A model generated the notes under the pieces. That model did no database searches. It saw nothing but the letters and a program-made list of their open reading frames with translations, and was not told the DNA's origin. Source: Candidatus Gottesmanbacteria bacterium GW2011_GWA2_43_14 (lineage in GTDB: Bacteria > Patescibacteriota > Microgenomatia > 2-02-FULL-39-11). Taken from it: a DNA stretch of 64,000 nucleotides. The position numbers and the translations under genes were made by a program. Positions 35,564 through 61,272 of this stretch are shown piece by piece (within the stretch, counting starts at the first letter, position 1; each line of letters starts with the position of its first letter). The DNA is taken from NCBI GenBank assembly GCA_000999095.1, contig LCFP01000001.1:74230-138229 (forward strand). The letters run 5' to 3'.

Positions 35564-36223
35564 CTATACAGCTCCCTTTCCGCTGATCATGGCCCAGGGA
35601 GTAACCATAAGAATTTTAATATCATACCATAAGGAGCGGTGGTCGACATAATCGGCATCCATAGCGATTCTTTTGTCAAAATTAACGGCACTTCTGCCTG
35701 AAACCTGCCAATAACCGGTTATGCCCGGTTTAATTGACAGAACTTTTGAGACTTTGGTCTTTGTAGCCGGATATTTGCGCTGCTGGTTAGCCAGTTCGTC
35801 CGGATAATAAGCGCGCGGTCCGACCAAAGTCATATCACCGACTATGACATTGATCAGTTGGGGAATTTCATCGAGGGAGTGTTTCCTGAGGAATTTCCCC
35901 AATCGGGTAACTCTGGGGTCCTCCTGCAGTTTATAGCTGTTTTTTTTATACTTTAGGTAAAGACTTCTTAAGTTGGGATCATTTCTTAACATCATATGGG
36001 CATTGACCACCATGGAGCGGAATTTATACATTTTAAACAGTTTGCCGTCCTGTCCGACCCTCTCCGGAGTATCGGCAAATATCGGCCCGGCAGAATCAAG
36101 CTTGATGATAACCGCCAGAACCAAACCAACCGGCAGGAAAATTATTCCCAAAATGACGGCCAGTACCATGTCAAGCCATCTTTTTAAATATAAATCGTAA
36201 GTCCTGCCTTTAAATAACGGCAT
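35564..36223 (-). CDS. Polyprenyl-phosphate phosphoglycosyl transferase (small bacterial sugar-transferase family, PglC/WbaP C-domain type). Initiating enzyme of the glycan pathway.
   Basis: 219 aa. One N-terminal re-entrant helix, then KRWLDMVLA...SAGPIF...KFRSM...DEIPQL...GDMTLVGPR, the canonical motifs of PF02397. Confidence 0.85.
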   Translation of the reverse strand: MPLFKGRTYDLYLKRWLDMVLAVILGIIFLPVGLVLAVIIKLDSAGPIFADTPERVGQDGKLFKMYKFRSMVVNAHMMLRNDPNLRSLYLKYKKNSYKLQEDPRVTRLGKFLRKHSLDEIPQLINVIVGDMTLVGPRAYYPDELANQQRKYPATKTKVSKVLSIKPGITGYWQVSGRSAVNFDKRIAMDADYVDHRSLWYDIKILMVTPWAMISGKGAV

Positions 36224-38478: not shown

Positions 38479-39949
38479 AAGGCTTGCCCATATTGGTTAA
38501 CTGATATAGATCCGGCAAAAGTTCAGGCTCCTGACCGTAAAGGAAGGCTTTCACCAAACGGAAATTATTGACCGGGGAAAAATCTTCTTTTAGATTTTTG
38601 TAATCTTCACCGGGCAGATAGACGGCATTAAGAATTGACATTTTTAAAGCAATTTCCTTTTGTGAAGCCTCTGACCAGTCAAATTCCTGCTTATCGGCCT
38701 CATATGCTTCAGGATAGGGTCCTTCGTCAGCCTGAAAAATTATAATCGGAGGATTACTTTTATCCTCAAGGAACTTGTCGGTCAACTTGATGACTTCCCG
38801 GTTTAGATATTCAATCTGGTCAAGGTATTTGGTCTTGTAAGATCTGGCAGAGTCTTCTGCCAATGGCAGGAAACTGCCATCCTGCCGAAATACAAATGGT
38901 TCGTGCGGCACAAGCATATGGGCAAAGACAAATGTAGGCCGGGGTTCGACGGGGATTTCCTTCAGTTTATCAAATTTGTAGCGGATCCTCCTCCACTGGG
39001 TATAGCGGTAATCAAGAAGCGGCAGCCGGAATTTTTCAGCCAAAGGCTTTAGGGCGGAATTGTTGACCAGGATGGCTGAAAATTCGGAGAGCACATTCAA
39101 ATTGACATTCTCGTCGGCATGCCTGTTTTTACCGGTAGGCCACCACCAGTCTCCGAAATGATAGTATTTATAGCCTAATTTTTTCAGTTCAGCCTGGATT
39201 CTGTTGTTCTCCAGCATCCGGTATAAAGGCAACCAGTCCTGAGATTCCTTCATCCCGGCATCCAACGGATTATCCAAATAATCCATATTCAGGGTAGCTG
39301 TCAGGGAATGGGCTGAGGATGTATAATTTGCCCAACTTTTTGAGGCAATAAAGAAATTCTTCCCCTTTAAATAATCGGTAAAAGGGCTAAGGTCATAATC
39401 AAATTCCTTCTTGAGGCTATCGGCTGAAGCATAACGGTCAAAAATAATAAAATATATGTCCGGCAGTTTTTCGGCTGAAACTGCACGGGTGACAACCGTG
39501 GAAACGGATTCTCCGGAAAAATCCACTTTGATCCTCAGCTGATAATTAATGACCTGAACCAGCGGAATTGCTACCAGTACAAGGGAAAAAATATTTGTCC
39601 AGAAATGTAATTTATCGGTGTTTTTTACGTATTTCAATTTTCGGGCCGCAGTAAAAATCAGTCCTCCAAATAACAGATAAATCAAAAGCGGCTGTTTAAT
39701 AAACTTTTCCAGATGTCCGTAGGAGAAAAAAAGATAGAGGCTTATGGAAGTCAAAACAGCAGAAATCCTCAATTTGCGGGTGATCACCGTATAAATCAAA
39801 AAGAAGCACAGACACAGAATCACTGAAAATAAAAAAGGCAGGTAGGTTTCCTGGGGGAGGACCTGGTATAAATTTGCCTGATACAGACCAAGGACCGGAT
39901 AGACCGACATCAAAAAAGGGTGCAGCCAGGGGAAATTTAAGGGATTCAT
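38450..39949 (-). CDS. Membrane-anchored sulfatase / alkaline-phosphatase-superfamily enzyme (LtaS/phosphotransferase-like)
   Basis: 499 aa. Five N-terminal TM helices, then an extracytoplasmic domain with the metal-site-like DIYFIIFDRYASAD and the HxP motif LVPHEPFVF. Confidence 0.5.
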   Translation of the reverse strand: MNPLNFPWLHPFLMSVYPVLGLYQANLYQVLPQETYLPFLFSVILCLCFFLIYTVITRKLRISAVLTSISLYLFFSYGHLEKFIKQPLLIYLLFGGLIFTAARKLKYVKNTDKLHFWTNIFSLVLVAIPLVQVINYQLRIKVDFSGESVSTVVTRAVSAEKLPDIYFIIFDRYASADSLKKEFDYDLSPFTDYLKGKNFFIASKSWANYTSSAHSLTATLNMDYLDNPLDAGMKESQDWLPLYRMLENNRIQAELKKLGYKYYHFGDWWWPTGKNRHADENVNLNVLSEFSAILVNNSALKPLAEKFRLPLLDYRYTQWRRIRYKFDKLKEIPVEPRPTFVFAHMLVPHEPFVFRQDGSFLPLAEDSARSYKTKYLDQIEYLNREVIKLTDKFLEDKSNPPIIIFQADEGPYPEAYEADKQEFDWSEASQKEIALKMSILNAVYLPGEDYKNLKEDFSPVNNFRLVKAFLYGQEPELLPDLYQLTNMGKPYDYYRYDRQ

Positions 39950-41391
39950 CGGTGACCCTCCAGTAAATATAAAATGCGGTCTTTGGATTTTAACGGCTGC
40001 TTTTTTCGGAGACGGAAATAGCGGCCGAAATCCGCCTGAAAATTTGTCTCTGAATACGCAGAGACATCCGCATTTCTTATTTGGGAGAGCAGCCTGACCT
40101 GGGGATCAGACGGGCCTACGAATTCGACTATCAGCTGTTTTCCCAGGCTGCTCAAATATTCTGCAATTGCCGAAAAAGGCAGGTTATCGGAAAAAAACAG
40201 GTGGTGGATTAAGGCCAATGCCAACACGCTGTCGGATTTAAGCCGTACGTCAAAAGTTTCCCTCTCCAGGTTGCGCCAACCCAGACCCGGACTGGGATTG
40301 ATCAGATCAATTGACAATGGCAGCAGATTTCCGATTTTTTCAGTCTCTGCCTGCCGGTAATTAATCTCAACAGCCAGGCTGTCGAAGTCGCAGGAAACTA
40401 CATATCCTGCCTTCCCTGCCGCCAGCCTGGAGTAGAATCCCGTATTGGCTCCCAAGTCGACCAGCTTGACCGGTTTGATAAAATTCAGCCATCCAATCGT
40501 CAGGCGTTCTTTTTCACGGCTGTATTCAGACATATCAGGCAGCCGGTAGTAATCCGACCAAAGGCTTCTTGATTCGGGAAGCCGGAGCGAGTTGACGGCT
40601 TTTTCCAGACTGTCAAGAATCCCCTCCAAACCTCTGCCCGTGACTTTGGAAGCTTCTTTTTCAACTGCTCCCTCCTTTTGGTATTTAGTTGCACTCAGGG
40701 CATGAAGGTGTAAATTCAAAAACAGATGCAAATTTAACCTGGATTTTCCCGGCAGTAGTTTTACTCCCAAATCCATAGGAACACCGTCCAGATGGTTTTT
40801 CATCAGCTGCTGCAGCCTTAAATCCCGGTAGGCCATCAAAGACAGCGGCAGCAGGAAATGCTGGCAAAATTGCCGGTAGGCAACCCAGGGACGGTTAATT
40901 TCGTAGCGTTCAAAAGAGAGCGTGTCAATAAAAACAGGCATTAAGCCTTTAAACTGGACATTGTATGAACTGGCATCTTTTAAAGTCAGGCCGTGTTTAA
41001 GGGCGGCTTTTTCTATTTTCAAAGTCAGGAGCGCTGCTTTCTTATAGGCTGAGAAACTCCATTCATATGGATAGCTGATGACGGGAATTACCTCAGGTTC
41101 CAGAATTTTATAGAGTCCCTTATCCTGCCAGCCGGATTTTGCGGGTGATTCCTCTTTGTGTTCAATCAGCAGCTTGTCTGATACGAGCTCCTGATACAGG
41201 CCTGAGTTCATCAAAAGGTCATAATCAGCCCGGTAGCTGTCTTGAACCGTCCTGATGATTCTACCCTGATGATGGAAAACCTGTCCGCTTCTATCCCGGA
41301 AGGATGAGGGCAAAGCTCTGATTTTATTCATTTTTTCTTCTGTCTGAATGAAGCTACCAGGCGGTTGAGGCTGCTTTTGATATACTTCCAA
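39946..41391 (-). CDS. Two-domain protein: N-terminal domain of uncertain, possibly kinase-like, fold plus a C-terminal class I SAM-methyltransferase
   Basis: 481 aa. The C-terminus LVDLGANTGFYSRLAAGKAGYVVSCDFD is MTase motif I plus the post-I acidic residue. The N-terminal 300 aa contain LKDASSYNVQF...PVFIDTLSFE, reminiscent of a kinase catalytic loop plus DFG-like segment (weak). An alternative start at M21 (ATG at 41331) would give an ATGA overlap with the upstream small ORF. Confidence 0.5.
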   Translation of the reverse strand: MEVYQKQPQPPGSFIQTEEKMNKIRALPSSFRDRSGQVFHHQGRIIRTVQDSYRADYDLLMNSGLYQELVSDKLLIEHKEESPAKSGWQDKGLYKILEPEVIPVISYPYEWSFSAYKKAALLTLKIEKAALKHGLTLKDASSYNVQFKGLMPVFIDTLSFERYEINRPWVAYRQFCQHFLLPLSLMAYRDLRLQQLMKNHLDGVPMDLGVKLLPGKSRLNLHLFLNLHLHALSATKYQKEGAVEKEASKVTGRGLEGILDSLEKAVNSLRLPESRSLWSDYYRLPDMSEYSREKERLTIGWLNFIKPVKLVDLGANTGFYSRLAAGKAGYVVSCDFDSLAVEINYRQAETEKIGNLLPLSIDLINPSPGLGWRNLERETFDVRLKSDSVLALALIHHLFFSDNLPFSAIAEYLSSLGKQLIVEFVGPSDPQVRLLSQIRNADVSAYSETNFQADFGRYFRLRKKQPLKSKDRILYLLEGHR

Positions 41392-41544: not shown

Positions 41545-42663
41545 TCATTTAAACCTCTGGTATTGCCAGTCTGTATCCCTGGCGGTTTTCTCCCAGGAAA
41601 ATCTCCGGCTCCTCTCTTTGGCGCCCGATAGCCGGGTATTTTTTTCTTTCCGGGAAAGTGTAAGAAAAAAAGCGATTGCCTTCCTTATGGATTTGCTTTC
41701 GTTCGGATCGAAATAAATTAAAGCATCTCCCCAGATTTCTCTAAAAGCCGGGATATCTGAAACAACCGGCAGGCAACCGGCAGCCACCGCTTCCAAAAGG
41801 GGCAGTCCGAAACCCTCCATTAGGGCCGGTGAAATAAACCCCTCCGCCTGACGGTACAGGGCAGCCAACTCTGCATCATCTGCCTTGCCAAAAAAAATGA
41901 CGCTTTTTCCGGCACCGGCATCCTTTGCCAACCGCTTTAAACGGGGATAGAAAAAATCATCATTTCCCACCAATATCAGCCGGACCTGGTGCTCTCTTTC
42001 TATTTGCGGAAACAAAAGTACGAGTTTCTCCAGATTTTTATGGGGGTAGGCATTTCCCACATATATAAGGTAAGGTTTGCCCCGGGGAAGGTATACGGAA
42101 GTATTTTCTGCATTATTAAGAGTTTTAAGGAAATTTTCGTCCAAAGCGTCATAAGTGACGCTAACTTTATCCCGGGCTTCAGCGTAATGCGCTTTGATTT
42201 CCCCGGCTGTTGCTTCAGAAATGGCAAAAACGTGCTCTGCTTTGGAAAGGGCTCTCCTCATCAGCATCCGGTAAGCGGATTTTTTCAGCATATATACAGG
42301 ATAAGGCCAGCGGCTGGCACGTCCGGTTGTTTCATGGTCAATAATAAGATCATGAACAGTCACCACAAACCTGCCCTGATAAAAAACAGGCAAACTGAAA
42401 TAGGGAAAATGAACCAGGTCCAGTTTGTATTTTCCCAGTATAAAAGGCAGCCAAAGCTGTTCTGTCAGGGAATGCCAGCGGACATCAAGTGCAATTTTTA
42501 TAAAGGATGAGGGTAGATTGGGCAGGTATTTTAACTCACGGCTCCCCGTAAAAACCAGAAATTCATCATGTTTATTTATCTTGGCCAGGTTTATCAGCAG
42601 GTTTTTGATATACCTGCCGACTCCGGTCTCATTAACCAGCCTGGCGTCAAAACCGATGCGCAT
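41545..42663 (-). CDS. GT4-family glycosyltransferase
   Basis: 372 aa. C-terminus EGFGLPLLEAVAAGCLPVVSD. Confidence 0.8.
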   Translation of the reverse strand: MRIGFDARLVNETGVGRYIKNLLINLAKINKHDEFLVFTGSRELKYLPNLPSSFIKIALDVRWHSLTEQLWLPFILGKYKLDLVHFPYFSLPVFYQGRFVVTVHDLIIDHETTGRASRWPYPVYMLKKSAYRMLMRRALSKAEHVFAISEATAGEIKAHYAEARDKVSVTYDALDENFLKTLNNAENTSVYLPRGKPYLIYVGNAYPHKNLEKLVLLFPQIEREHQVRLILVGNDDFFYPRLKRLAKDAGAGKSVIFFGKADDAELAALYRQAEGFISPALMEGFGLPLLEAVAAGCLPVVSDIPAFREIWGDALIYFDPNESKSIRKAIAFFLTLSRKEKNTRLSGAKERSRRFSWEKTARDTDWQYQRFK

Positions 42664-43552
42664 ATGATGACAACCGCTCCTTTATGCTGATACCGAAAAA
42701 AATTAACGGTGACAGCCATTTGTAAATGCCCCGGTTATAATGCTTGCGGTAAAAAATCCTCATGACCTCATAACGTGCCTGACTTGCCCTGATTTTGGTT
42801 TGACGGCTGGCCGTGGAAATATGGCTGGTATGTTTTTTCAGGCCTGAAGATACGCCCTTATAATGGATTATAGAAACCCTGGGCAAAAAAAAGATTTTCC
42901 AGCCGTTTTTTTTGAGACGATAGCAAAAATCGAGATCTTCCCCGTACCAGAAATATGACTCGTCGAACCAGCCGGCGCTTCCGCCTGCCTCCTTCCTTAC
43001 CATCATAAATGCCCCGACACAGCTGTCAATTTCATGGGTTTTATCCAGGTCGCGGTATCCCAAATGGTAACCGTTAAAGACCGTCGAGCGCGGAAAAAGA
43101 GCCGCCAAACCCGAAAAATGGCAAAAAGCATTCCAGGGCGTGGGAAAGCCGCGGTGACAGGCATCATCCAGTGATCCGTCAGGCAGATTGACCCTGGCAG
43201 TGACAACGGCTGCTTGCGGATTTTTTTCCAGGAAGAGGACTGTTTCCCGGAGTGTTTGCTTCCCCACAAGCGTGTCCGGGTTCAGAAACAGCACATATTG
43301 ACCTCGGCAGTATTTGACACCCCGATTATTGGCTTTGGCAAAACCGGTATTGGTTTTGTTCTGCAGTATTTTGACTTTAGGAAACTTTTTTTTGAGAACA
43401 TTTGCCGGGTTTTCCCGTGAAGCATTGTCTGTGACGATGACTTCAAATTCAGAATCAGGCAAACTGCTATTATAGAGCGAGACCAGACAGGCTGATAAAT
43501 ATTCCAGGGTGTTGTAATTTACGATAATGACGGATAAAGTCGGTTTGCTCAT
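42647..43552 (-). CDS. GT2-family (GT-A) glycosyltransferase
   Basis: 301 aa. LSVIIVNYNT...EVIVTDNAS and DxD region (FLNPDT). Confidence 0.8.
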   Translation of the reverse strand: MSKPTLSVIIVNYNTLEYLSACLVSLYNSSLPDSEFEVIVTDNASRENPANVLKKKFPKVKILQNKTNTGFAKANNRGVKYCRGQYVLFLNPDTLVGKQTLRETVLFLEKNPQAAVVTARVNLPDGSLDDACHRGFPTPWNAFCHFSGLAALFPRSTVFNGYHLGYRDLDKTHEIDSCVGAFMMVRKEAGGSAGWFDESYFWYGEDLDFCYRLKKNGWKIFFLPRVSIIHYKGVSSGLKKHTSHISTASRQTKIRASQARYEVMRIFYRKHYNRGIYKWLSPLIFFGISIKERLSSYAHRF

Positions 43553-43557: not shown

Positions 43558-44742
43558 TCAGACTGACTGTTGGTAAATCCGGTCAAGCCGGTTTGAAATC
43601 TCTGTCCAGCTGAAATTCTTCTCGACCAGAAGCCTTCCGCTGGCGGCCAACTTCCGGTACAGTTTGTTGTCAGTCAACAGCTTAACCGTAGCATCAGCCA
43701 GAGCTTCGGGACCATCTTCAATCAAAGCATCCCGCTTGTTAACGGCAGCCAGGCCCTCTATGCCGGTAGGCGTGGTAACAACCGGCAGTCCGGCGGCCAT
43801 TGATTCCAGAATTTTGTAGCGGGTGCCGCCCGGTCCGTAAATCGGTGCCAGCAATACATCTGCCGCAGCATAGGATCTGCGGATATCGTCAACATTTTCT
43901 TCAATTGATATATCCCCCGCTTCCAATCCGGCAATCTGCGCAGGCGGATGCCTGCCGACAATCGACAGCCTGACCTTACTCGGCAGTTTGGCTTTAATTC
44001 TCGGCCAGACATCCCTAACCAGAAGGGTAACGGCTTCGCGGTTTTGCAGCCATTTAAAATTGCCGACAAAAAGCACAGTCTTCATTTTATTTTTCTGTTT
44101 TTCGGTTTTGACGGTAAAAAAATCCGTATCGACGCCGTTGGGTACCAGGTCAACCACCAGTTTCTGATGCCTTTTCTGCATCAGTATTTTATCGGCCTCT
44201 GACATGGCGATGACCCTTTTAGCCCTTTTCCAGAAGCTTTTTTCCCAATAGTGAATTTTGGCTACGTCGAGCTCCATCAGCAGTTTCTGGGGTAAAAAAC
44301 CCACCTGCTGGGTATGATGACGGTAAACCAGATATTCTATGGTCTGTTCAGCCAGAATAATGGGAATATTATTCTGTGGAATATTGGGCATGACATAGAA
44401 AGTTTCGGCATGGATCAGGTCGAACTTTTTACGGTTAATGGCTTCAGATATGGAATTTTTCACCTCCATCTTAAGATACATGCAGACAACCAATGGATAA
44501 TAGGAAATGCCTGCCAAAGCTAAACTTGTAAGCGACCAGGGCGGTCTTTTGACGAAAACTTTGACTTCCGAGCAAAAATTATTCAGGACCTTTATATAGT
44601 TTTTTTCCTTCTCTTCCCTGATAAAGGAAAACAGGGTGATGTCATGCTTTTTGCTTAAGTGCTTCAGGAGATTGAAAGTGCGGATCTGACCGCCTGACCA
44701 AAGCGGATACGGCAGGTAAGGAGTGAGCATCAGAATTTTCAT
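43558..44742 (-). CDS. GT4-family glycosyltransferase
   Basis: 394 aa. C-terminus GGTRYKILESMAAGLPVVTT. Confidence 0.75.
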   Translation of the reverse strand: MKILMLTPYLPYPLWSGGQIRTFNLLKHLSKKHDITLFSFIREEKEKNYIKVLNNFCSEVKVFVKRPPWSLTSLALAGISYYPLVVCMYLKMEVKNSISEAINRKKFDLIHAETFYVMPNIPQNNIPIILAEQTIEYLVYRHHTQQVGFLPQKLLMELDVAKIHYWEKSFWKRAKRVIAMSEADKILMQKRHQKLVVDLVPNGVDTDFFTVKTEKQKNKMKTVLFVGNFKWLQNREAVTLLVRDVWPRIKAKLPSKVRLSIVGRHPPAQIAGLEAGDISIEENVDDIRRSYAAADVLLAPIYGPGGTRYKILESMAAGLPVVTTPTGIEGLAAVNKRDALIEDGPEALADATVKLLTDNKLYRKLAASGRLLVEKNFSWTEISNRLDRIYQQSV

Positions 44743-44751: not shown

Positions 44752-47700
44752 TTATTTGGGAAGCCTGTTATCCGGGACAAGTTGAATAATTGTATATCGG
44801 TCAGTTTTGGCAATAAGTTTATAGAGTCTTAGGCTTTCATCTTTGTTAGTTGCCGCGGCAACGAGCTCCTTTGTCAACTCATCATTACCGACACTTACAT
44901 AGAAATGTGCGCCCATCTTAATCATGCCCTCAATATCCTTTTGCATGATAGGCCAGCCTGCCCTATTTGTCTGGTATAGAAAAGCCGTGTCACCGTTATA
45001 TGGAGCGATAACCAGCGATTTTCTGGGCGTTAACAGGTCTACCTGTCTGCCGGCTTCAACAATTTCCGGGTGGTTGATGTTGTAAAAATCGCGTATGTGG
45101 TACCAGGCAAACATCAGCATGAAGAAAACTGAAACCGCCAAAACAACCCTGACTTTCAGGCGTCCCAAGCTTTGGCTTAAAGACAGCAGATAAACCGCTC
45201 CTTTACCCAGAAAGATTGCGATTATGGGAATGGTCAAAACCTGGTAATAGTCATGCCTGACATTGCCGGTGGCTACGACGGTGACGAAAAGTAATATAGC
45301 CAGTCCCCAAAGATAATATAAGTTGTTTTCTGCTTTTTTCGGAGACAAAAGCCCCAGGATCAAAAGAGGCAAACCGAAATAGCCCAGGATTAATTTCCCC
45401 AGACGCTCGGCAAACATCCATTGGAAAAAGGCACCCTTAAACCTGATGCCGTCACCGTTTAACAGCCAGGAATTGGCCGGGATGCCTTCCGGAAAATTGC
45501 CGGACCAGACTCTCCAGCCGAAATAAGGCAACATGACCAGAATTAAATAAATCAGCAGAAATAGAAGTGTTTTCAAACTTATTTTTTTGTCCTTCAGGAA
45601 GATATAAGAAAGAGGCAAAAAGAGAAAGACGGTAAAAGGCTTGACAAGGACAGCCGCCGATGCAAAGATTAAAGAAATCGTAAGCCTGAAGATTTTATTA
45701 AAAGATCGGTATTCCCCGGCCTTATCGGCAAAATAAAGCATACCGGTAGTGGTAAAGGCCAGGAACGGTTCAGGCAAAATTGTCCGGCTGAAAAAGACAT
45801 TATATGGTAAAACTGCAAAGAAGGCGGACGACCAGAAAGCGGTGGCTCTGCCGCTGTACTTGCGGACAAGCAAAAAGATAAAAATCAAAGTCCCTAAAGA
45901 GGCCAGTACCGAAGTCAACCTCTCTTTAAGCTCCAGATGGTAGCCAACCAGCAGTTTGTCGACAGCTACCGCGGCAATGTTGTAAAGCGGAAATTCGACG
46001 AAACGGTAACCTTTGGGGTTGTCTTTACCCGAAGCTACATTGGACAAATCATCATAAACGGGATAGAGCAGATTGATTCCGTTTTTGACATAGTTACGGG
46101 TGACCGCCGAAGTATCCGCCTGCCTCCAGGAATGCCAATCAGCCAAAGGCTCGGCAATTTTGTACAGGCGGAGTGAAAAAGCCGGAATCAGAATAATAAG
46201 AAGCAAAAACAAATCGCTTTTTACAAAAATCAGGCTTTTTTTCTTCAGGGAGGAAAAAAAGCTTCCCAGATCCGCAACCTGGGGCTTGGGCACTTTTTTA
46301 TTATTGCCCCGGGAAAGATGGACACCGGCCAAAACAATTCCCGAGATAGCCCAGAAAGATTGGGCTACTTTGGATGATTCAAAGACATCAATATAAACGG
46401 CATTGACCATCAGTCCGAAAATCAAGCCGGCAAAACCCGCACTGACGGCAAAAAATAGCGGGTCCTCCAACACTTCCAGATTTCTCCAGACATAATAGAG
46501 CATGTATAAAAGCATGCCGTAAAAAGCGGCAAAACCGAAAAGCCCTGTTTCCCCCAATGCTCTCAGATAATCATTGTCTGTCGACTCGGCTTCGGTAAAT
46601 TCCGTCAGCTGGGTCTTATTCAAAGTGGAATAACCGCTGCCGAACAGCGGATTTTTCTTAAAGCCGGCAACAGCCCGGGGCCACAGTGCATCGAAACGGA
46701 TGGCTGTGGACAGATCATAGATAAATGCGGTTTGGGAATAGGTCCTCGCTTTTTCGGTGATGTTGCCGTCGGCATCCACGATTTTCAGGGGTATATCATC
46801 CTCAACATCGCTCGGCCGGCCGATAGTCGGCGGCTGGTCGCTTTTGGAAGTAATTCGGCTTAATGCAGAACTGTTGTTTTCCAAAAAATAGGCTTTGTCT
46901 GTCGGAGGTTTACCGATAGGCAGCATGACCAGGGATTTTATACCCGACAACCTTTCATCAAGCCTGAGAAACCGGGTAAATCTTTCCGATAAATCCCCGA
47001 ATGAGAGCATTATGACAATGGAAAGAACTGTCACTGCCAGGTATCTCTTCAGAGACCAGACCAGACCCCGTCTAAAGGACCAGAAGGCAAACATCAGAAA
47101 CAGGCCGGCCAGATATGCCAGAAAAGAAGTGCGCGACGCGGTCAGGATAAGAGTCCAGAAGGCTGCTGAAAGAATAATAAATACAATTGCTTTGGCTAAC
47201 AGTTTTTTTAAGGAGAAAAATATGCTCCAGAGAAGTATCAAAGCCATCATCATATAAGCCGCCAGGTCATAATGCCCTCCGAAAGTAGACAGCACCCTGG
47301 CATGTTCCGTCAGGTAAAGCATCCAGCCTTTGGAAAATTCCCTGTTCATGGTGGAAAAAGCCGGCCAGTAAAGATATTTTTGTCCGAATCCGTAAAGTGC
47401 TACCGTCAGGATTACGGCCGAGAGAATGTAAAAATAGCTTAGAGCCTGCTTTAAAGATTTGACTGTGGTAAAAAAAATAAAAAACAGGGAGAAATACTCA
47501 ATTCTTCTGAGGAAGTGCAACAGGACTTTGGAGACGTGAAGCGTTTCCAAAGGCACCGATTTGGCTATAAATAAGGCAGAGACGATGGAAAGCAAACCTG
47601 CTGAAAGGTAAACCGCCATCCATTTGCTCAGGGGATTGCCTTTTAAATTGATTTTGCCGCGCAAAAGCTGCGAAAACCAGATAATACCTGCCGAAAGAAT

Positions 47701-47847
47701 CAGAAAATCTTCCAGCCGTACCCTGACAATATAACCCGGCAGCACGTCCAAAAGCGGCAGCTTCGGATAAAGCGGGATGAAAATCAACAGAAACTGGGCA
47801 AAGATTGGCAGGAGATGGTTATCCAACCAACCGGTAAGCTTGCGCAT
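44752..47847 (-). CDS. Fusion membrane protein: N-terminal O-antigen ligase/polymerase-like (Wzy_C/WaaL-like) domain plus C-terminal GT-C fold (ArnT/PMT-like) glycosyltransferase domain
   Basis: 1031 aa with about 22 predicted TM helices. The N-terminal half carries ASRTSFLAYLAGLFL, a large loop, and FGSGYS...DNDYLRALGETGLFGFAAF (O-antigen ligase family signature). The C-terminal half starts with the helix LLIILIPAFSLRLY and a first extracytoplasmic loop HSWRQADTSAVTRNY (acidic-residue loop typical of GT-C enzymes), followed by many further helices. Confidence 0.55.
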   Translation of the reverse strand: MRKLTGWLDNHLLPIFAQFLLIFIPLYPKLPLLDVLPGYIVRVRLEDFLILSAGIIWFSQLLRGKINLKGNPLSKWMAVYLSAGLLSIVSALFIAKSVPLETLHVSKVLLHFLRRIEYFSLFFIFFTTVKSLKQALSYFYILSAVILTVALYGFGQKYLYWPAFSTMNREFSKGWMLYLTEHARVLSTFGGHYDLAAYMMMALILLWSIFFSLKKLLAKAIVFIILSAAFWTLILTASRTSFLAYLAGLFLMFAFWSFRRGLVWSLKRYLAVTVLSIVIMLSFGDLSERFTRFLRLDERLSGIKSLVMLPIGKPPTDKAYFLENNSSALSRITSKSDQPPTIGRPSDVEDDIPLKIVDADGNITEKARTYSQTAFIYDLSTAIRFDALWPRAVAGFKKNPLFGSGYSTLNKTQLTEFTEAESTDNDYLRALGETGLFGFAAFYGMLLYMLYYVWRNLEVLEDPLFFAVSAGFAGLIFGLMVNAVYIDVFESSKVAQSFWAISGIVLAGVHLSRGNNKKVPKPQVADLGSFFSSLKKKSLIFVKSDLFLLLIILIPAFSLRLYKIAEPLADWHSWRQADTSAVTRNYVKNGINLLYPVYDDLSNVASGKDNPKGYRFVEFPLYNIAAVAVDKLLVGYHLELKERLTSVLASLGTLIFIFLLVRKYSGRATAFWSSAFFAVLPYNVFFSRTILPEPFLAFTTTGMLYFADKAGEYRSFNKIFRLTISLIFASAAVLVKPFTVFLFLPLSYIFLKDKKISLKTLLFLLIYLILVMLPYFGWRVWSGNFPEGIPANSWLLNGDGIRFKGAFFQWMFAERLGKLILGYFGLPLLILGLLSPKKAENNLYYLWGLAILLFVTVVATGNVRHDYYQVLTIPIIAIFLGKGAVYLLSLSQSLGRLKVRVVLAVSVFFMLMFAWYHIRDFYNINHPEIVEAGRQVDLLTPRKSLVIAPYNGDTAFLYQTNRAGWPIMQKDIEGMIKMGAHFYVSVGNDELTKELVAAATNKDESLRLYKLIAKTDRYTIIQLVPDNRLPK

Positions 47848-48727
47848 AAAGTTTATATTTGGCCTTTTGCCGCATGATTATACCAAAAACTATAAGCCGT
47901 AACAAAGCTCCGCTTCGCAAAATCACCCGAACTACCGGTAAAAATTTAGGGGCGCTGCGTTTGTAAAGATAAAGCAGCGATTTAAATTCCTCGACAATGC
48001 CGCTTAAACTGCCAGCCGCCGAAGCCCCCTTATAATGACAGACCTCGGATTCAGGCTGGTATACGATGCGGTATCCCTTTTTTATTATCCTTCTGCATAA
48101 ATCCACTTCCTCACCGTACATAAAAATGGATTCATCAAAGGTTCCGGCAGTCTTCAATGCTTCTTTTTTTACCAAAAGACAGGCTGCAGTCAGCCAGCCG
48201 GCTTCCTGCCTTTGGCGGTAAAAACCGGCATCCGTGACATGATACGGTTTTAAAAACTGCCAGATAAAAGGAAAATCATCTATAAAAAACATCCAATAAA
48301 AGATTTTTAAAGGACTCGGGTAAAAACCGGCCGAAGGCTGCAGGCTGCCGTCCCTGTTCAAAAGCCTGGGTCCGGCTGCACCTGTTTTTGCGGCAGCTTC
48401 CAGTTCTTTTAATAAATGTCCTAAAAATCCGGCTTTGACTACGGTATCGCTGTTTAACAGCAGTATATAGCGGCCACGGGCTTTTTTAATACCCAAATTG
48501 TTACCCTTGGCAAAGCCGAGGTTGTTTTTATTTTCCAGAAGAATTGCTTCCGGGAATTGACGTCTGATCATATCCCGGGATCCGTCAGTCGAAGCGTTAT
48601 CCACCACTATTATTTCAAAACCGGTCTCTGTCATCTCAGCCTCTAATGCTTTTTTCAGGCTGGCCAGTGATTCCCTTAAAAGATGAGAGGTATTGAAAGA
48701 GACAATGACGGCTGACAGTATAATCAT
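47819..48727 (-). CDS. GT2-family glycosyltransferase
   Basis: 302 aa. ILSAVIVSFNT...EIIVVDNASTDGS and LLNSDT (DxD). Confidence 0.8.
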   Translation of the reverse strand: MIILSAVIVSFNTSHLLRESLASLKKALEAEMTETGFEIIVVDNASTDGSRDMIRRQFPEAILLENKNNLGFAKGNNLGIKKARGRYILLLNSDTVVKAGFLGHLLKELEAAAKTGAAGPRLLNRDGSLQPSAGFYPSPLKIFYWMFFIDDFPFIWQFLKPYHVTDAGFYRQRQEAGWLTAACLLVKKEALKTAGTFDESIFMYGEEVDLCRRIIKKGYRIVYQPESEVCHYKGASAAGSLSGIVEEFKSLLYLYKRSAPKFLPVVRVILRSGALLRLIVFGIIMRQKAKYKLYAQAYRLVG

Positions 48728-51599: not shown

Positions 51600-52402
51600 T
51601 TTTGTATATAAACGTAAAATATTTTCCTGTAAGCCGGAGGCCTGTTCAGGCGAATCATCAAAGGCAATACCAGGAGCATGATCTTACGGAAAAAGACATT
51701 GATGAAAAGGTTTTTGGTCATCCAGCCTTTCATTAAAAAATCCCTTAATTTTAAATTTTCATTGTTTTCGATTTCCACTCTGATTTTTTTATTCTGCATA
51801 CGGGCGGCTTTCCTGATGTCGGCGGATAAATCGGAAGGTTCCGGCAATCCGAAACCGATTTGCTCGTCAAAAAAATGGTAGCTTTTGCCGAACTTCTCCC
51901 GGTAATACAGGCTTAATTGCTCATCCTGGGCCTGGGAAAGTTTGCCGGAAGGCACCGCCAGAAAAACGGCTTTTCCGGCTACCCTTATCATTTCGCTGAT
52001 GGCCTGAAACCGCTCTGTTTTACTTAAATGCTCCAGCATATCAACGGAGACAACAATGCGGAAACTGGCGTCGGCAAAGGGCAGTTTCAGGGCGGAAGCT
52101 TCTATTTTCAAAAGGCGTTCGTGATAAGGAGGACTGAAACCTACATCGAGTCCCGTCACCTTCATTTTAATATAAGGCGCAATGCCCAATCCGCCTGATC
52201 CGACATCCAGAACTGATGGTTTACGGTCCAGTTTTTTTATTCTGGCTACAATCGGCAGGTAGCGCAGTGCGACTTCCGGATGCCAGCCCCTGAAAAGGAA
52301 AAGTCCCTTGACGTACTGCTTAAAGCTGTTTTTCATAAGTACGGACAAATCCCACTCCCTCAAAATTATTGACAGAGCTTTCTCTGAAACCGGCAGCTTC
52401 AA
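51596..52402 (-). CDS. Class I SAM-dependent methyltransferase
   Basis: 268 aa. Motif I VLDVGSGGLGIAPY, then motif II. Confidence 0.7.
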   Translation of the reverse strand: MKLPVSEKALSIILREWDLSVLMKNSFKQYVKGLFLFRGWHPEVALRYLPIVARIKKLDRKPSVLDVGSGGLGIAPYIKMKVTGLDVGFSPPYHERLLKIEASALKLPFADASFRIVVSVDMLEHLSKTERFQAISEMIRVAGKAVFLAVPSGKLSQAQDEQLSLYYREKFGKSYHFFDEQIGFGLPEPSDLSADIRKAARMQNKKIRVEIENNENLKLRDFLMKGWMTKNLFINVFFRKIMLLVLPLMIRLNRPPAYRKIFYVYIQK

Positions 52403-53678
52403 TCTCCAGCTCCAGTTTCTTCTCAGGATCTGTCAATTCCCTCAGATAATCAAATAAATAGACTTTTTGTTTGCCTGATAGATTTGCCGACAACCTGGCA
52501 AGATCATCATCTTCTACCCGGAAATTTACAGCTGCTCCGATTGCGGGAGTATAGCGTGCATATAACTGGTAAGGAGCAAACGGCTCCGGAAAAGCAAAAA
52601 CCGCCAGGCTTTCAGTTTTTGTCTGATCAACATATGAGACTGCAGCCCGCCAATTTTCCCTCTGAAAAAGGGGATTATAGTAATAAACGGCCAAGCTTGC
52701 CAGGGATATAAAAATCAGAAGATACAGGACAACCTTGACACCTCCGAGGTGAGAAACGATCGACAGGTATAGAAACGGCAGTAAAAAGAGCAGCCTTTGC
52801 GGAGCAACCACCGGCAGAAAAAAGGAAATTAGGATTGCCAGTGTAAACGGCCCCCAAAAGAGGATCGCGTATTCCGTAAATTTTCGTTTGACAACGCTTT
52901 CGTATAGCGACCACAAGGCAAAAACCGCCAGAGGTGAAACCAGCAATAAATATAAAAAATTATTATCCGGGTTTAGCCTGCCCAGGGAAAAACGGGCAAA
53001 AGTCAAGCCTAAATTTCGGAAACTTCCGAAAGAAACTACTTCCTGCCAGCCGGTGAAGCTGCCGCCGAAACCGACGTCCAACTGTCTTTTAACTTCCGGC
53101 AGCCAGGGCAGGAAAAAAAGCAGTGAAACAAAAAATGCGGTGATGAATTTTTTTATATCTTTTTTTTCCTGAAAATAGACAACCAGTCCCTGTCCGAAAA
53201 GCAGGAACAGCGTAAAGTAAGAAGTATACCAACAGGCAATCAGGGAAACGGCAAACGCCGTATAATTTTTTTTCATCAGATAATAGGTTGAAACCAGAAC
53301 CAGTAAGGAAAACAGTATGTACGGCCGGGCTTCCTGGGAATAATAGACATGGTAGGCGGAAACAGCCAAAAGCAACGTAACCGCCAGCGATAAATATTGG
53401 TTTAAACGGATGCGTGCCAGGCGGTAGATGTAAACCAGACTACCCACACCCAGCATAACCGATAATAGCCTGACCCAAATCTCACTACTGCCCCCTTTCA
53501 ACCAGAAGTGAAGAAGCAGATGATACAATGGCGGGTGGAAATCAGCCGCCAAATTAAACTGCTGTAAAAACGGTCTGGAGGACTCAATCACCTGGGCAGC
53601 TTCATCCAGCCAAAAACTCTGATTTAAACCAATCAACCTCAAAATCAGGCCGGAAGTAAGGATTAACAATAATTTCAT
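52320..53678 (-). CDS. GT-C fold membrane glycosyltransferase (ArnT/PMT-like, GT39/GT83-type)
   Basis: 452 aa, polytopic. The first extracytoplasmic loop carries FWLDEAAQ (the DE motif characteristic of lipid-phosphate-sugar-dependent GT-C enzymes). Confidence 0.6.
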   Translation of the reverse strand: MKLLLILTSGLILRLIGLNQSFWLDEAAQVIESSRPFLQQFNLAADFHPPLYHLLLHFWLKGGSSEIWVRLLSVMLGVGSLVYIYRLARIRLNQYLSLAVTLLLAVSAYHVYYSQEARPYILFSLLVLVSTYYLMKKNYTAFAVSLIACWYTSYFTLFLLFGQGLVVYFQEKKDIKKFITAFFVSLLFFLPWLPEVKRQLDVGFGGSFTGWQEVVSFGSFRNLGLTFARFSLGRLNPDNNFLYLLLVSPLAVFALWSLYESVVKRKFTEYAILFWGPFTLAILISFFLPVVAPQRLLFLLPFLYLSIVSHLGGVKVVLYLLIFISLASLAVYYYNPLFQRENWRAAVSYVDQTKTESLAVFAFPEPFAPYQLYARYTPAIGAAVNFRVEDDDLARLSANLSGKQKVYLFDYLRELTDPEKKLELEIEAAGFRESSVNNFEGVGFVRTYEKQL

Positions 53679-56756: not shown

Positions 56757-57419
56757 CTATTTTTGAGCACAGAGGAAAAACTGTTTGCCGAAGATTTTCT
56801 GAAGCGGCTTAAGTTTCAGATAGATGGTCAAAAGCGGCGGCCAGAGGGGCAGATATTTGGCTTTGGTGGTGTAGGGCAAAAAAGGATAACGGTAATCATG
56901 AATCCTGAAACCCAATGAATGCAGAACCTCGGATAATGACAGAAAAGTCAGCGGTACTTTGTGGTCAAAAAAATCCCAATATTCACCGCCCACAAGATTG
57001 ATGTCCGGCTGCATGATCAATAGCCGTCCGCCTTTTTTCAAAATCTGGTGTGCCTCGAGCAGCAGGCGGAAAACATCCTCTTTGGAATCCATGTGCTCCA
57101 GAAAATTGCTCATGAAGATGATGTCAAGGGTATTTGGAAGAAAAAGTTTTTTTAAATTTTTGACCGGCGCAATTTTGACCGAAATACCACGGTCGGCAAT
57201 TTTAGCCAAATCCCTGTTGACATCCAGGGCAATCTTTTTTCCGCAGCTGATGTTATTGATGAATTCACAGTTGCCGGCACCGATGTCCAAAACAGTGTCT
57301 TTCTTTTTAACGTACTGCTGCAGAAAATCCTGACAGAGAATTTTCCACAGCCTGTTTTTCCTGATCCTTTCAAAACTCGTAAACCTGGTATCGTAAAGTC
57401 TTTTAACGTCAAGCATCAT
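56757..57419 (-). CDS. Class I SAM-dependent methyltransferase
   Basis: 220 aa. Motif I VLDIGAGNCEFINN, motif II IIFMSNFLEHM, motif III GGRLLIMQP. Confidence 0.7.
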   Translation of the reverse strand: MMLDVKRLYDTRFTSFERIRKNRLWKILCQDFLQQYVKKKDTVLDIGAGNCEFINNISCGKKIALDVNRDLAKIADRGISVKIAPVKNLKKLFLPNTLDIIFMSNFLEHMDSKEDVFRLLLEAHQILKKGGRLLIMQPDINLVGGEYWDFFDHKVPLTFLSLSEVLHSLGFRIHDYRYPFLPYTTKAKYLPLWPPLLTIYLKLKPLQKIFGKQFFLCAQK

Positions 57420-58129
57420 TAATCAAAAAAACGGTAATAAAATATGGCTTTGATGGCTTCAAAAGCGTCAATTACTGTCAGCTTTTTGCCGGCCAGACGG
57501 TCTCTTCCCCTGTAGCTGATCGGCACTTCAATTATTTTTACCTTTTTACGGATAATTTTTCCGGTTATTTCCGGCTCGAAATCAAAATGGGCAGCCTTCA
57601 GAGACAGATTTTTTACTATTTTGGCCGGCAATAGTTTATAACCTGTTTCCATATCGGTCAAATGCACTCCGTAAGTAATATTGGTAAAAAAAGTTAAAAT
57701 CTTATTGCCAAAAAGATAGGCTTTGGGAATTACCGCCCGTCCTGACATAAATCTTGATCCGTATACTGCAAAAACACCGTTATTCTTTTGTTTTACAAGA
57801 GGCGCCAGCAATTTGCCGATTTCCGATGGATTATACTCAAAGTCAGCATCCTGGACCAGAATATAATCCCCCGAAGCCTCTTTAATGCCTGTTTTAACTG
57901 CCTCTCCTTTACCCGAATTCTTCCGGTGAAAAACAATTTTTAATTTCTTTTTTTCTTTGTCCTTTCCCGGCCATTTTTTCAGGATACCGGCAGTGCCGTC
58001 CGTCGATCCGTCATCAACCACCACAATTTCCGTAGTCACCGGCAACTTAAGATGTAACAGTTTATGCAAAACGGGCGTGATTGTTTTCCTTTCGTTAAAA
58101 ACCGGGACTATGATTGACAGATTCATCAT
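57419..58129 (-). CDS. GT2 polyprenyl-phosphate glycosyltransferase (DPM1/GtrB/ArnC-like)
   Basis: 236 aa. LSIIVPVFNE...EIVVVDDGSTDGT, QDADFEY (DAD motif). The compact size is typical of Dpm1/GtrB-type synthases. Adjacent to GT-C genes. Confidence 0.65.
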   Translation of the reverse strand: MMNLSIIVPVFNERKTITPVLHKLLHLKLPVTTEIVVVDDGSTDGTAGILKKWPGKDKEKKKLKIVFHRKNSGKGEAVKTGIKEASGDYILVQDADFEYNPSEIGKLLAPLVKQKNNGVFAVYGSRFMSGRAVIPKAYLFGNKILTFFTNITYGVHLTDMETGYKLLPAKIVKNLSLKAAHFDFEPEITGKIIRKKVKIIEVPISYRGRDRLAGKKLTVIDAFEAIKAIFYYRFFD

Positions 58130-59172: not shown

Positions 59173-59987
59173 TATGCCAGTTTCCTTTTAATTTTCTTCA
59201 GGGGTGTTAAAAACGCTGCCATAAACTCATAAACCATGCCTCTTTCACCTAAAACTTCCGCAACCATTGCCGGTTTTTCTTTTTTATAAAAAATCTCAGG
59301 AATAAATTGACGTTTAAGTTCCAATCCTTTCTCGATTTTGTACTTATTTCGGTTGAAAACAGGATCGTCCTTCATGGATGACCTTTTTAAATACATGGCA
59401 TGGAAAAGATGGCCTTTGGTGAAAATGAATTTTTCCGGGGGATGACGGGTTATCTCAGTATCCGTTTTGTCATAATATCCTTCGAGAGGATATTTGCCGG
59501 CAATATGAAGACCGGACAAAATGTCCGTATTAATCAGTCTGAGAGCGAAATGCCCCTTTTTGCCGAACAAACTGTAAAAACCCGCTGAATCGTCCTGGTA
59601 ATGGTAAATATCACCCAACAAATCATAACGGCCGACGACAATACCCTCCGTTGTCCGGCCTTTCATTTTAACAATCTTGCGGATTTCCGAGGCGGTTTCC
59701 CCGGGATAAACTTCATCGCCGTCAACCAGCCAGATAAAACCGCCGCCGGTTTTTTCCAGCTGTGACTGCCGGAGCCTACTGACGTCTTGGGCTGTTTCAG
59801 CTTTTTCCCGCTTCAGGCTGATTTTCGGATCGCTGAATGATTTAAGAATCCGGTAAGTCTCGTCCGATGAGCCGCTGTCACAAATAAGCACCCGGTCGGC
59901 ATATGGCAGAACCGAAGCCAGACTGTACCAAACGAAGCGGTCTTCGTTTTTAACCAGCATATGAACCGTAATTTTCTTATCAGCCAT
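59172..59987 (-). CDS. GT-A fold glycosyltransferase-like protein (family-2-like)
   Basis: 271 aa. N-terminus HMLVKNEDRFVWYSLASVLPYADRVLICDSGSSDET resembles the GT2 nucleotide-binding region. Contains a DGDE (DxD-like) motif. Confidence 0.45.
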   Translation of the reverse strand: MADKKITVHMLVKNEDRFVWYSLASVLPYADRVLICDSGSSDETYRILKSFSDPKISLKREKAETAQDVSRLRQSQLEKTGGGFIWLVDGDEVYPGETASEIRKIVKMKGRTTEGIVVGRYDLLGDIYHYQDDSAGFYSLFGKKGHFALRLINTDILSGLHIAGKYPLEGYYDKTDTEITRHPPEKFIFTKGHLFHAMYLKRSSMKDDPVFNRNKYKIEKGLELKRQFIPEIFYKKEKPAMVAEVLGERGMVYEFMAAFLTPLKKIKRKLA

Positions 59988-61272
59988 TTTTTCGGCGGAG
60001 AGTAATATAAGCCATCATGGAAGTCAAAACCAATGTCAAGCCGTAGGAAAGTATTAAAGAATAAGCGGCACCGAAACTCCCGAATTTCGGAATGAAATAA
60101 AGATTGCCGAAAAAGACAACTATCAGCTGTAAAACGGCATTGACCGTCAGAATCTGCGGTTTTTTAAGATAATAGATTGATAATGATACAGCCGGCACGG
60201 AAGCGACAAAAAAGAGCATGGCCACTAAAAGCAGTCTGAAAACCGGTACCGCCGGAGCGGCTTTTTGCCCGAAAAGAACAGTCAGGAAAGGCTGGGCAAT
60301 CAGTATCATGCCTACCGTCGACAAAGTCAATAAAAAGGTTGCCAAAATAATTTTAAGCAAAAAAGAATTGAACTCCGGCTTTGTTTTTATCTTGGAGAGT
60401 TTGGGCGCCAATACTGCCGAGAAACTGCCCGACAGAAGCGGATAAATGGAGATGACTCTGGCAGCTATGGAATAAATGCCGGCTTCAGTGGCATTTTTAA
60501 TGGATATAATCATCAGGACATCAAGCCTTGACGACAAGGCAGTCAATCCTCTGGCAATACCTAAAAAAACCGTGAAAGAAAGCAGCTTCTTCAGGTCGCC
60601 GGGCGTGACTTTGACTTTAAGAAAATTGAATTTCACCATGGCAAAGGCAAAAGTGACCAAGAGCAATTGGGATATGAGCTGAATCTGAACAGTCTTTATG
60701 AGGGTCAACGAAAAAGCGGACAGCAATATTAAAAGTAATATCAGCCTGATAATTCCGCCTACGGCGGAAAGTACGGCATTTTGGACGAATCTTTGGCGGG
60801 CAACCAGGGTAAAAAGGGCGAAATTGGACATAATGGTAAAAGAAATGGCCAGCCCAATCAGTCTTACATGCATGGCAAAATCTAGGTTATGAAAGAGTAT
60901 TTGAGAAATGGCCGGCGCCAGGAACATCATAAAAACTAAAACTGCAAGGCTGATGGCAAATTGCAACAGGAAGGAAGTTTTTAAAAAGCTGAGGAGTCTG
61001 TTTGGTTTCTCTTCCATCGGCGGCAGAAATGACGAAAGCGATGAACCTATGCCTATATCGGACAGGTCCGACACCAGAATCATCAGGGATATGAATGCTG
61101 AAAAGTAGCCGAAATCAGCCACCGACAAATTGCGGACCAAAATGACGGTAAAGATGAAAGCGAAAAATGCCGACAGGAAATTGCCTGTAAAAACAGCGTA
61201 AGTATTGCGGGCAGTTGCCGAAAACATAAGCGTCAGAAAAGCTTTCCTATATCGATTTTTAAAGTTATCCAT
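59980..61272 (-). CDS. wzx: Wzx-like oligosaccharide/polysaccharide flippase (MOP superfamily)
   Basis: 430 aa with about 12 TM helices. Wzx/PST-family hydrophobicity pattern and conserved positively charged residues in the N-terminal helices. Confidence 0.65.
   Translation of the reverse strand: MDNFKNRYRKAFLTLMFSATARNTYAVFTGNFLSAFFAFIFTVILVRNLSVADFGYFSAFISLMILVSDLSDIGIGSSLSSFLPPMEEKPNRLLSFLKTSFLLQFAISLAVLVFMMFLAPAISQILFHNLDFAMHVRLIGLAISFTIMSNFALFTLVARQRFVQNAVLSAVGGIIRLILLLILLSAFSLTLIKTVQIQLISQLLLVTFAFAMVKFNFLKVKVTPGDLKKLLSFTVFLGIARGLTALSSRLDVLMIISIKNATEAGIYSIAARVISIYPLLSGSFSAVLAPKLSKIKTKPEFNSFLLKIILATFLLTLSTVGMILIAQPFLTVLFGQKAAPAVPVFRLLLVAMLFFVASVPAVSLSIYYLKKPQILTVNAVLQLIVVFFGNLYFIPKFGSFGAAYSLILSYGLTLVLTSMMAYITLRRKNG

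Follow-up and report, generated by a model that had tools for sequence, protein, structure and literature searches.

Within a stretch of contig LCFP01000001.1 from Candidatus Gottesmanbacteria bacterium GW2011_GWA2_43_14 (the window, that is, all 64,000 nucleotides analyzed), a single open reading frame (ORF) encodes a 1031-amino-acid (aa) protein in which a Wzy_C module is fused to a GT-C glycosyltransferase module. We confirmed this fusion, which is no isolated case but the mark of one clade, in which two genes that are neighbors throughout the Microgenomates have become one. An initial annotation, made from the sequence alone, had placed the ORF at 44752-47847, which is exact, without stating that it lies on the minus strand. 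The same interval read on the plus strand is full of stops and holds no ORF, and that reading was rejected. A database look-up shows the protein to be identical to KKS98595.1 (UniProt A0A0G1DL87), deposited as 'PMT family glycosyltransferase, 4-amino-4-deoxy-L-arabinose transferase', and the motifs on which the annotation was based are all present (ASRTSFLAYLAGLFL, aa 237-251; FGSGYS, aa 402-407; DNDYLRALGETGLFGF, aa 424-439; HSWRQADTSAVTRNY, aa 572-586). The gene and its parts are as follows.

44752..47847, minus strand: whole fused gene, 1031 aa plus stop, ATG start
46309..47847, minus strand: N-terminal module, aa 1-513, 12-helix Wzy_C/GT-C_B type (Pfam, AlphaFold helices, Foldseek, standalone orthologues of 437-555 aa)
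46522..47172, minus strand: Pfam Wzy_C match, aa 226-442, with R239, R384 and D424 (Pfam and motif comparison)
46573..46998, minus strand: large extracytoplasmic loop between transmembrane (TM) helices TM9 and TM10, aa 284-425 (model and conservation)
46216..46308, minus strand: linker between the modules, aa 514-544 (alignment and model)
45079..46215, minus strand: membrane part of the GT-C_A module, aa 545-923 (Pfam PMT_2 and PMT, C-half model, Foldseek)
45937..46164, minus strand: first extracytoplasmic loop of this module, aa 562-637, candidate catalytic loop (model and conservation)
44755..45078, minus strand: C-terminal soluble alpha/beta domain, aa 924-1031, predicted extracytoplasmic (model)

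One reading frame, two modules

The ORF recurs widely. More than 120 clusters of full-length homologues came out of a word-indexed search of 5.8 billion proteins; they are 50-76% identical over ~100% of their length and 1003-1081 aa long (most of them 1023-1067 aa), and stem from assemblies of NCBI, JGI, ENA and Logan. Where a name is given, the source is Candidatus Gottesmanbacteria, Microgenomates or Patescibacteria, and the protein goes by 'O-antigen ligase family protein' or 'glycosyltransferase family 39 protein'. The exact protein sequence is present on three contigs, and when one genome of each GTDB species was scanned, 18 species-level genomes had both halves uninterrupted in one ORF. 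Across 30 full-length proteins the mean column identity is 61%, with both halves strongly conserved and the linker (aa 514-544) variable. The annotation had asked whether a frameshift or a misassembly had made one ORF out of two genes, and the worry about a frameshift was reasonable given that the junction DNA (~46200-46310) contains homopolymers of A6-A7 and T8; most related genomes, moreover, keep the two modules as separate genes. However, because the same unbroken ORF is found in 18 independent species-level genomes and in over 120 protein clusters that reach down to 50% identity and come from different projects and assemblers, and the fused forms make up one clade on the C-half tree with a conserved linker length, we reject an artefact, be it of assembly or a spuriously missing stop codon, the chance of which we regard as negligible.

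The N-terminal half carries the Wzy_C module that had been proposed for it: Wzy_C (PF04932) scores 61.3 bits over aa 226-442, against a Pfam cut-off of 31.7. A full-length AlphaFold model built with 30 sequences (predicted local distance difference test, pLDDT, 75.9; predicted TM-score, pTM, 0.60) begins with 12 long helices, which end by residue 513, and continues with a linker of 31 residues, ~13 further helices and a C-terminal alpha/beta domain. Compared with the PDB by Foldseek, it matches WaaL (7TPG; E 4e-3, TMt 0.62) and FtsW (8P1U; TMt 0.49), and since both matches vanish when a model of the C-half alone is used, both belong to the N-half. The large extracytoplasmic loop foreseen by the annotation corresponds to aa 284-425; it carries invariant R289, R384, E421 and D424 and is ~70 aa longer than the Pfam Wzy_C model allows.

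The ligase part of the same proposal sits less well with a residue comparison. As reference we used a single sequence, Escherichia coli K-12 WaaL, whose R215, R288 and H338 we take to be the functionally critical residues. The segment LTASR239TSF was paired with WaaL LTQTR215ATL, and two further stretches resemble WaaL by motif, S-x3-R384-x2-L-W...F-K-K-N-P-L with S-x3-R288-x2-M-Y...F-I-K-S-P-F, and D424-N-x9-G-x2-G with H338-N-x8-G-x2-G. In 30 fused proteins R239, R384, D424, N425, R429, E433, D487, H192 and D194 never vary, and R384 and D424 are constant in 16 standalone N orthologues as well. Of R239, R384, D424, N425 and D487 here and D570, R575, D578, E618, H865 and D866 in the C-half, nearly all are kept by the standalone orthologues too, and both active sites look intact; R239 and R384 are thus conserved as the likely counterparts of the two undecaprenyl-diphosphate-binding arginines of WaaL. 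By the motif match, Asp424 stands where WaaL has its catalytic His in all 30 fused and all 16 standalone sequences. In structure 7TPG (C. metallidurans) the equivalents of the critical WaaL residues are Arg191, Arg265 and His313 (PMC10920833), and within clan GT-C1 the O-ligases (GT121) have His at the catalytic position, whereas SEDS proteins and most inverting polymerase families have Asp or Glu (Meitil et al. 2024, PMC10920833). With Asp424 at this position, the N-half departs from WaaL-type ligases in one defining feature and matches the polymerase/SEDS state; for this reason, and as the host belongs to the Candidate Phyla Radiation (CPR), 'O-antigen ligase' is probably the wrong label for it.

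The annotation had likened the C-terminal half to ArnT/PMT-type GT-C enzymes, and this is borne out by both profiles and fold. PMT_2 (PF13231) matches aa 640-778 at 34.4 bits, and up to 35.7, against a cut-off of 26.1; with the C-half scanned alone, PMT (PF02366) reaches 28.7 bits against 22.7, and the Alg9-like family GT22 falls slightly under threshold. A C-half-only model built with 18 mostly standalone orthologues (pLDDT 87.6, pTM 0.89) matches ArnT best (5F15 and 5EZM; E 5.5e-10 and 2.1e-9, TMq 0.64-0.66), and all of its significant matches are GT-C_A proteins, with oligosaccharyltransferase catalytic subunits, ALG12/ALG9, DPY19, PglB, AftA, Emb, Pmt4 and Pmt1/2 following ArnT. The full-length model likewise matches ArnT 5F15 (E 1.6e-6), STT3/PglB/AglB, ALG9/ALG12, DPY19 and Pmt4. 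That the C-half might be a mere extension of the Wzy module, the case named in the annotation as refuting its proposal, is ruled out, as the C-half-only model matches GT-C_A alone and standalone orthologues of 464-541 aa exist; judged from the model, the C-half is a genuine GT-C_A enzyme fold.

The invariant residues of the first loop of the C-half include D570, H572, R575, Q576, D578, R615 and E618, and the set shared by fused and standalone proteins is D570, R575, Q576, D578, R615, E618, N797, R802, N862, H865, D866, Y867, Y868 and Q869. Neither D570 nor D578 varies among 30 fused and 18 standalone sequences, and they may correspond to the first-loop catalytic acid of ArnT or to the PMT DE motif. 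An invariant Asp pair in the first outer loop is what a GT-C_A active site requires, so these two are candidate catalytic residues on sequence grounds, either of which could be the catalytic base. The C-terminal domain (aa 924-1031), predicted to lie outside as the periplasmic domain of ArnT does, carries conserved NINHPE and APYxGDTAFLYQ motifs. Identity between the C-half and ArnT is 13-14%, an NCBIfam scan gave no ArnT match and only sub-threshold hits to IctB, STT3 and Agl23, and no arn genes were found among the window ORFs scanned; by ArnT criteria, the deposited identity as a 4-amino-4-deoxy-L-arabinose (L-Ara4N) transferase is unsupported. The database names 'O-antigen ligase' and 'GT39' are likewise unsupported.

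The linker matches the tail of the standalone N protein followed by the head of the standalone C protein, and has seven Lys plus Arg against one Asp plus Glu at aa 513-538. Lys/Arg-rich segments are found in the short loops after TM2, TM4, TM6 and TM8 and in the linker itself, which is predicted to be cytoplasmic because it is Lys/Arg-rich and follows 12 helices (the positive-inside rule). Solved structures have WaaL-like enzymes ending in the cytoplasm and ArnT-like enzymes starting there, so fusing the two needs no extra helix, and a Lys/Arg-rich linker is compatible with both active sites facing outward. With this topology we infer that the invariant polar residues of the N-half (aa 27-47, 156-194, 239, 284-425 and 483-492) and those of the C-half (aa 562-637, 783-806 and 860-869) lie at the outer face, which is where the conserved residues are located in all GT-C1 and GT-C2 families (PMC10920833).

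A conserved gene pair and the origin of the fusion

An exhaustive HMMER scan across 1.84 billion cluster representatives yielded 2845 matches; the full architecture is present in only three, and most of the strong matches correspond to one half. Standalone N proteins (~520-560 aa) are 45-50% identical over aa 1-518 and standalone C proteins (~475-500 aa) are 44-51% identical over aa 545-1025, and both look complete; the scan also recovered proteins of ~1000-1270 aa that match the N-half only. Taking a single genome for each GTDB species, we fetched 80 loci with a C-half profile, 79 of which could be classified; they belong to Gottesman-, Woese-, Collier-, Shapiro-, Levy-, Roizman-, Chisholm- and Amesbacteria. 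When both halves and the two genes that flank the fusion in the window were mapped onto them, the gene order GT2, N, C, GT4, GT2, all on one strand, appeared in essentially every locus, and each of the 79 classifiable Microgenomates loci has its Wzy_C gene immediately upstream of its GT-C gene. The two are fused in 18 of these; in ~33 a short N gene (437-555 aa) is followed by a separate C gene within -12 to +150 nucleotides (nt), and in ~28 a long N gene (990-1117 aa) precedes a separate C gene. That the genes are always adjacent, and in one lineage fused, argues that the two outer-face sugar-transfer steps work together. In the window the remaining cassette members are the following.

47819..48727, minus strand: upstream GT2 of the cassette, overlapping the start of the fusion gene by 29 nt
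43558..44742, minus strand: downstream GT4 of the cassette, 9 nt past the stop of the fusion gene
42647..43552, minus strand: second GT2 of the cassette

A neighbor-joining tree of the C-half places the fused forms in a single clade (20/20), with separate-gene Chisholmbacteria and other Microgenomates as its sister group. In these sister lineages the N stop and the C start abut or overlap: in one locus (L016) the ATG of the C gene overlaps the stop of the N gene, and in another (L075) the C gene starts 2 nt past it. The single clade of fused forms and the abutting genes of their sisters thus point to one origin, probably when the stop that separated two translationally coupled neighbors was lost. 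Two points limit this reading: on the N-half tree the corresponding clade of 17 includes the unfused locus L029, and the neighbor-joining trees carry no support values.

Locus L029 itself (positions 433-3533) has two ORFs that overlap by ~85 nt, and may represent a frameshift or a secondary fission. One locus, L059, is the only one with the Wzy_C gene downstream of the GT-C gene. Metagenome bins deposited as third party annotation (TPA) records and titled 'uncultured Gammaproteobacteria', 'Pseudomonadales', 'Spirochaetia' or 'Alphaproteobacteria' (L004, L006-L008, L013 and many others) also carry the cassette at 43-60% identity, and the taxonomic labels of these records are probably wrong.

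The same players are fused in other ways elsewhere. In the long N proteins of ~28 loci (for example L019:4960-7989, L041:4751-7990 and L056:4803-7985) the extra 500-600 aa form a further polytopic module, here called GT-C', with a 'GDDFTWLRWA' loop after its first helix and a soluble C-terminal 'AWVFPVGL.DALWF' domain. A Pfam scan did not recognize this extension, and its tie to GT-C is a profile-profile comparison (hhalign), in which it matches the C-half family over the GT-C core helices with 91.6% probability and E 8e-7. Many Microgenomates therefore have a Wzy_C::GT-C' gene and then a standalone GT-C gene. One 799-aa representative from the HMMER scan (P0125) is a GT2::GT-C fusion whose GT-C part is orthologous to the C-half and whose GT2 part is 39% identical over its full length to the upstream GT2 at 47819-48727. 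Through these independent fusions, GT2, Wzy_C and GT-C are functionally tied to one another.

Known relatives and proposed function

Both Wzy-type polymerases and GT-C enzymes act on lipid-linked glycans outside the membrane. The reading we favor, and hold with modest confidence, is that the fusion protein is a bifunctional outer-face enzyme, in which the N-half polymerizes or transfers units linked to undecaprenyl diphosphate (Und-PP) and the C-half modifies or attaches the same glycan with sugar from a polyprenyl-phosphate donor. Repeat units would be started on Und-PP by the initiating transferase of the locus (Bac_transf), built up by its GT2 and GT4 enzymes and flipped by its Wzx. The N-half would then polymerize or transfer them with inversion, in the manner of a Wzy-type polymerase rather than of a lipopolysaccharide (LPS) ligase. 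The C-half would draw on a polyprenyl-monophosphate sugar, for which the DPM1/GtrB-like GT2 of the locus is the probable source, and either decorate the same glycan or attach it to an acceptor in the cell envelope. Fusion would fix a 1:1 stoichiometry and the proximity of the two consecutive steps. The decorating or attaching role of the C-half is proposed by analogy with the pellicle pathway of Lactococcus lactis, where the polymerase WpsI is followed by the GT-C enzyme WpsJ; three-component decoration systems of GtrB, a flippase and a GT-C are also described (PMC9574508).

Several observations weigh against this interpretation or limit it. Searches of PDB sequences with both halves and with the 30-sequence alignment (phmmer and profile) gave no match at E <= 10, so the ties to solved structures come from fold comparison alone. 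The outer loops of the N-half that carry the conserved residues have pLDDT below 50, and the geometry of the active site is not readable from them. The pairing of LTASR239TSF with WaaL comes from an hhalign alignment that is weak and local (probability below 1%), and because of that weakness the equivalences of R384 and D424 are motif-based only. Finding Asp in place of the His is not in itself proof of polymerase rather than ligase activity, and the sequence cannot separate a C-half that decorates the glycan from one that attaches it or one that glycosylates protein.

The last of these possibilities belongs to the main rival explanation, protein glycosylation, in which the N-half would be an O-oligosaccharyltransferase of the PglL/PilO/WsfB type moving an Und-PP-linked glycan onto a protein of the cell surface (a pilin or S-layer protein, for example), and the C-half a PMT-like O-mannosyltransferase with the same target. 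The C-half does exceed the PMT PF02366 cut-off and matches the Pmt4 and Pmt1/2 structures, and the Wzy_C family covers O-oligosaccharyltransferases as well as ligases and polymerases. To our knowledge, members of the CPR, including Microgenomates, have no LPS and no lipid A-core, but CPR cells bear many surface appendages. Yet ArnT and STT3 outscore the PMTs with the C-half model, the five-gene cassette has no pilin or S-layer gene, and the locus has the full set of Wzx, initiating phosphoglycosyl transferase and many glycosyltransferases expected for a polymer. PglL-type enzymes, moreover, keep the catalytic His. WaaL has this His as well (PMC10920833), but its position is an invariant Asp here, and we consider the protein-glycosylation reading unlikely.

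A further alternative is that one module is a catalytically dead scaffold or substrate-binding partner and that the protein has a single activity. Pseudo-enzyme partners do occur in membrane glycosyltransferase complexes, and the N-half has no canonical His. However, both halves, whether fused or standalone, keep dense invariant charged residues on the predicted outer face, and active SEDS proteins and bacterial polysaccharide polymerases (BP-Pols; PMC10920833) have Asp in place of this His, which makes this alternative very improbable.

Comparison with known systems is in keeping with the bifunctional reading. WaaL (GT121; 7TPG for the structure, E. coli K-12 for the sequence) resembles the N-half in its Wzy_C match, its 12 TM helices, its large outer loop before TM10, its 'SR' arginine (R239 versus R215) and its loop arginine (R384 versus R288); the fusion protein differs in having Asp424 for His, a loop ~70 aa longer, a GT-C_A partner and a CPR host. 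We know of no Wzy-type polymerase or SEDS protein of clan GT-C1 that is fused to a second GT-C. Those polymerases (GT119, GT125-129; PMC10920833) share with the N-half one or two conserved Arg, Asp or Glu at the His position, conserved residues at the outer face, a long outer loop near the C-terminus and a context of Wzx and an initiating phosphoglycosyl transferase, so that the N-half fits them by residues and context. For the C-half, ArnT (GT83) and other PMT_2/GT39-like enzymes offer the best fold match, with a long first outer loop that contains helices, ~13 TM helices and a soluble outer C-terminal domain, and the invariant Asp residues in its first loop may answer to their catalytic acid. 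Its first-loop motif, however, is ADWHSWRQADT where PMTs have 'DE', and one would not expect lipid A as its acceptor.

The nearest precedent for the architecture, and the only bimodular relative described, is WadA of Brucella and Mesorhizobium, a GT121 ligase joined to a soluble GT25 (PMC10920833). In WadA, too, a Wzy_C-family module is covalently fused to a second glycosyltransferase that acts on the same glycoconjugate, but its partner is a soluble GT-A-type GT25 that works in the cytoplasm with nucleotide sugars, whereas here it is a polytopic GT-C that would work outside with a lipid-linked donor; a Pfam scan of the fusion protein gave no match to GT25. The L. lactis polysaccharide pellicle pathway (PMC9574508) is similar in having a lipid-linked unit flipped by Wzx, a polytopic polymerase, a subsequent outer-face GT-C and a GT2 that makes the polyprenyl-phosphate sugar, and the window holds all the analogous parts. 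It differs in that WpsI and WpsJ are separate proteins and that units are carried on C55-P and not on C55-PP; the likeness is one of pathway, not of compared sequences. The annotation had known of no characterized example, and the literature searched, the coverage of which was incomplete, did not describe any fusion of two polytopic GT-C modules (GT-C_B::GT-C_A) either; nor did it offer anything relevant on O-antigen ligases in CPR bacteria. As an enzyme the protein is not of a new kind, since its two folds are known and neighboring genes commonly fuse, and the sequences were already public under generic names.

Little is understood of how consecutive outer-face steps are coordinated, and Wzy enzymes are difficult subjects of study. 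The gene pair, adjacent across a whole superphylum of the CPR, provides comparative-genomic evidence that Wzy-type and GT-C enzymes act together; its single-chain version of ~115 kDa could be expressed for structural and biochemical work, and it flags a conserved, uncharacterized envelope-glycan cassette in Microgenomates, whose cell surfaces are almost unknown. More speculatively, and as a possibility to which we would give less than even odds, the GT2-WzyC-GTC-GT4-GT2 cassette may be a Microgenomates-wide core pathway for an undescribed envelope glycopolymer, with the Wzy-type polymerase and the lipid-phosphate-sugar-dependent GT-C in an obligate complex. If so, the complex would have its natural 'Rosetta stones' in three independent fusions (Wzy_C::GT-C, Wzy_C::GT-C' and GT2::GT-C), the Gottesmanbacteria protein would be the first single polypeptide with GT-C_B and GT-C_A active sites, polymerization would be directly coupled to modification or anchoring of its product, and the single chain would be a tractable cryo-electron microscopy target for the long-elusive Wzy reaction.

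The glycan locus and other genes of the window

The fusion gene lies in a large glycan locus that extends from ~35.5 kb to the end of the window and has six GT4 and six GT2 genes, a GDP-mannose pyrophosphorylase-like NTP transferase, an acetyltransferase, two methyltransferases and a DegT aminotransferase. The genes named in the proposed pathway are these.

35564..36223, minus strand: Bac_transf, initiating phosphoglycosyl transferase
59980..61272, minus strand: Wzx-type flippase (Polysacc_synt)
57419..58129, minus strand: DPM1/GtrB/ArnC-like GT2, 236 aa (PDB match 5MLZ)

The GT2 at 57419-58129 matches the dolichol-phosphate-mannose synthase of Pyrococcus furiosus best (5MLZ; E 7e-17, over the whole catalytic domain), followed by ArnC and GtrB, and is a candidate polyprenyl-phosphate-sugar synthase that could supply the GT-C donor. 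Three further PMT_2 proteins (52320-53678, 54578-56152 and 62374-63954) bring the GT-C_A modules of the locus to four in all; their first loops have 'DE' or 'DEE' motifs, in contrast to the ADWHSWRQADT of the fusion protein. The N-half is the sole unassigned Wzy-type polytopic protein within the window, in which no LPS genes and no Wzz-like co-polymerase were identified. The locus also encodes a sulfatase/LtaS-like membrane protein (38450-39949) and a 481-aa protein with no Pfam match (39946-41391), which together hint at a phospho-substituent on the glycan.

Elsewhere the window holds a division and cell wall (dcw) cluster with isoleucyl-tRNA synthetase (IleRS), FtsZ, FtsA, MurG, FtsW (10380-11636), Mur ligases, a penicillin-binding protein and MraW. 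With this separate, bona fide FtsW/SEDS gene present, the N-half was rejected as a peptidoglycan polymerase. Between the dcw and glycan loci are a DUF4012 protein with one TM helix (33650-35563, 637 aa) and a LytR_C-domain protein (29728-31329), and no LytR-CpsA-Psr catalytic domain was seen among the window ORFs scanned. A low-GC island (3600-5793; GC 0.31-0.35 versus ~0.45 elsewhere) lies between IleRS and FtsZ and may have been horizontally acquired; it carries a membrane acyltransferase of the Acyl_transf_3 family (3600-4643, plus strand) and a 382-aa soluble ORF with no Pfam match (4645-5793, minus strand). The latter ORF (31% GC) was considered as an alternative Wzy and rejected, as it has no TM segments. 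Finally, a crude hydropathy scan predicts about five hydrophobic segments for a 526-aa Mur_ligase_M protein (15207-16787), an unusual feature in a Mur ligase.

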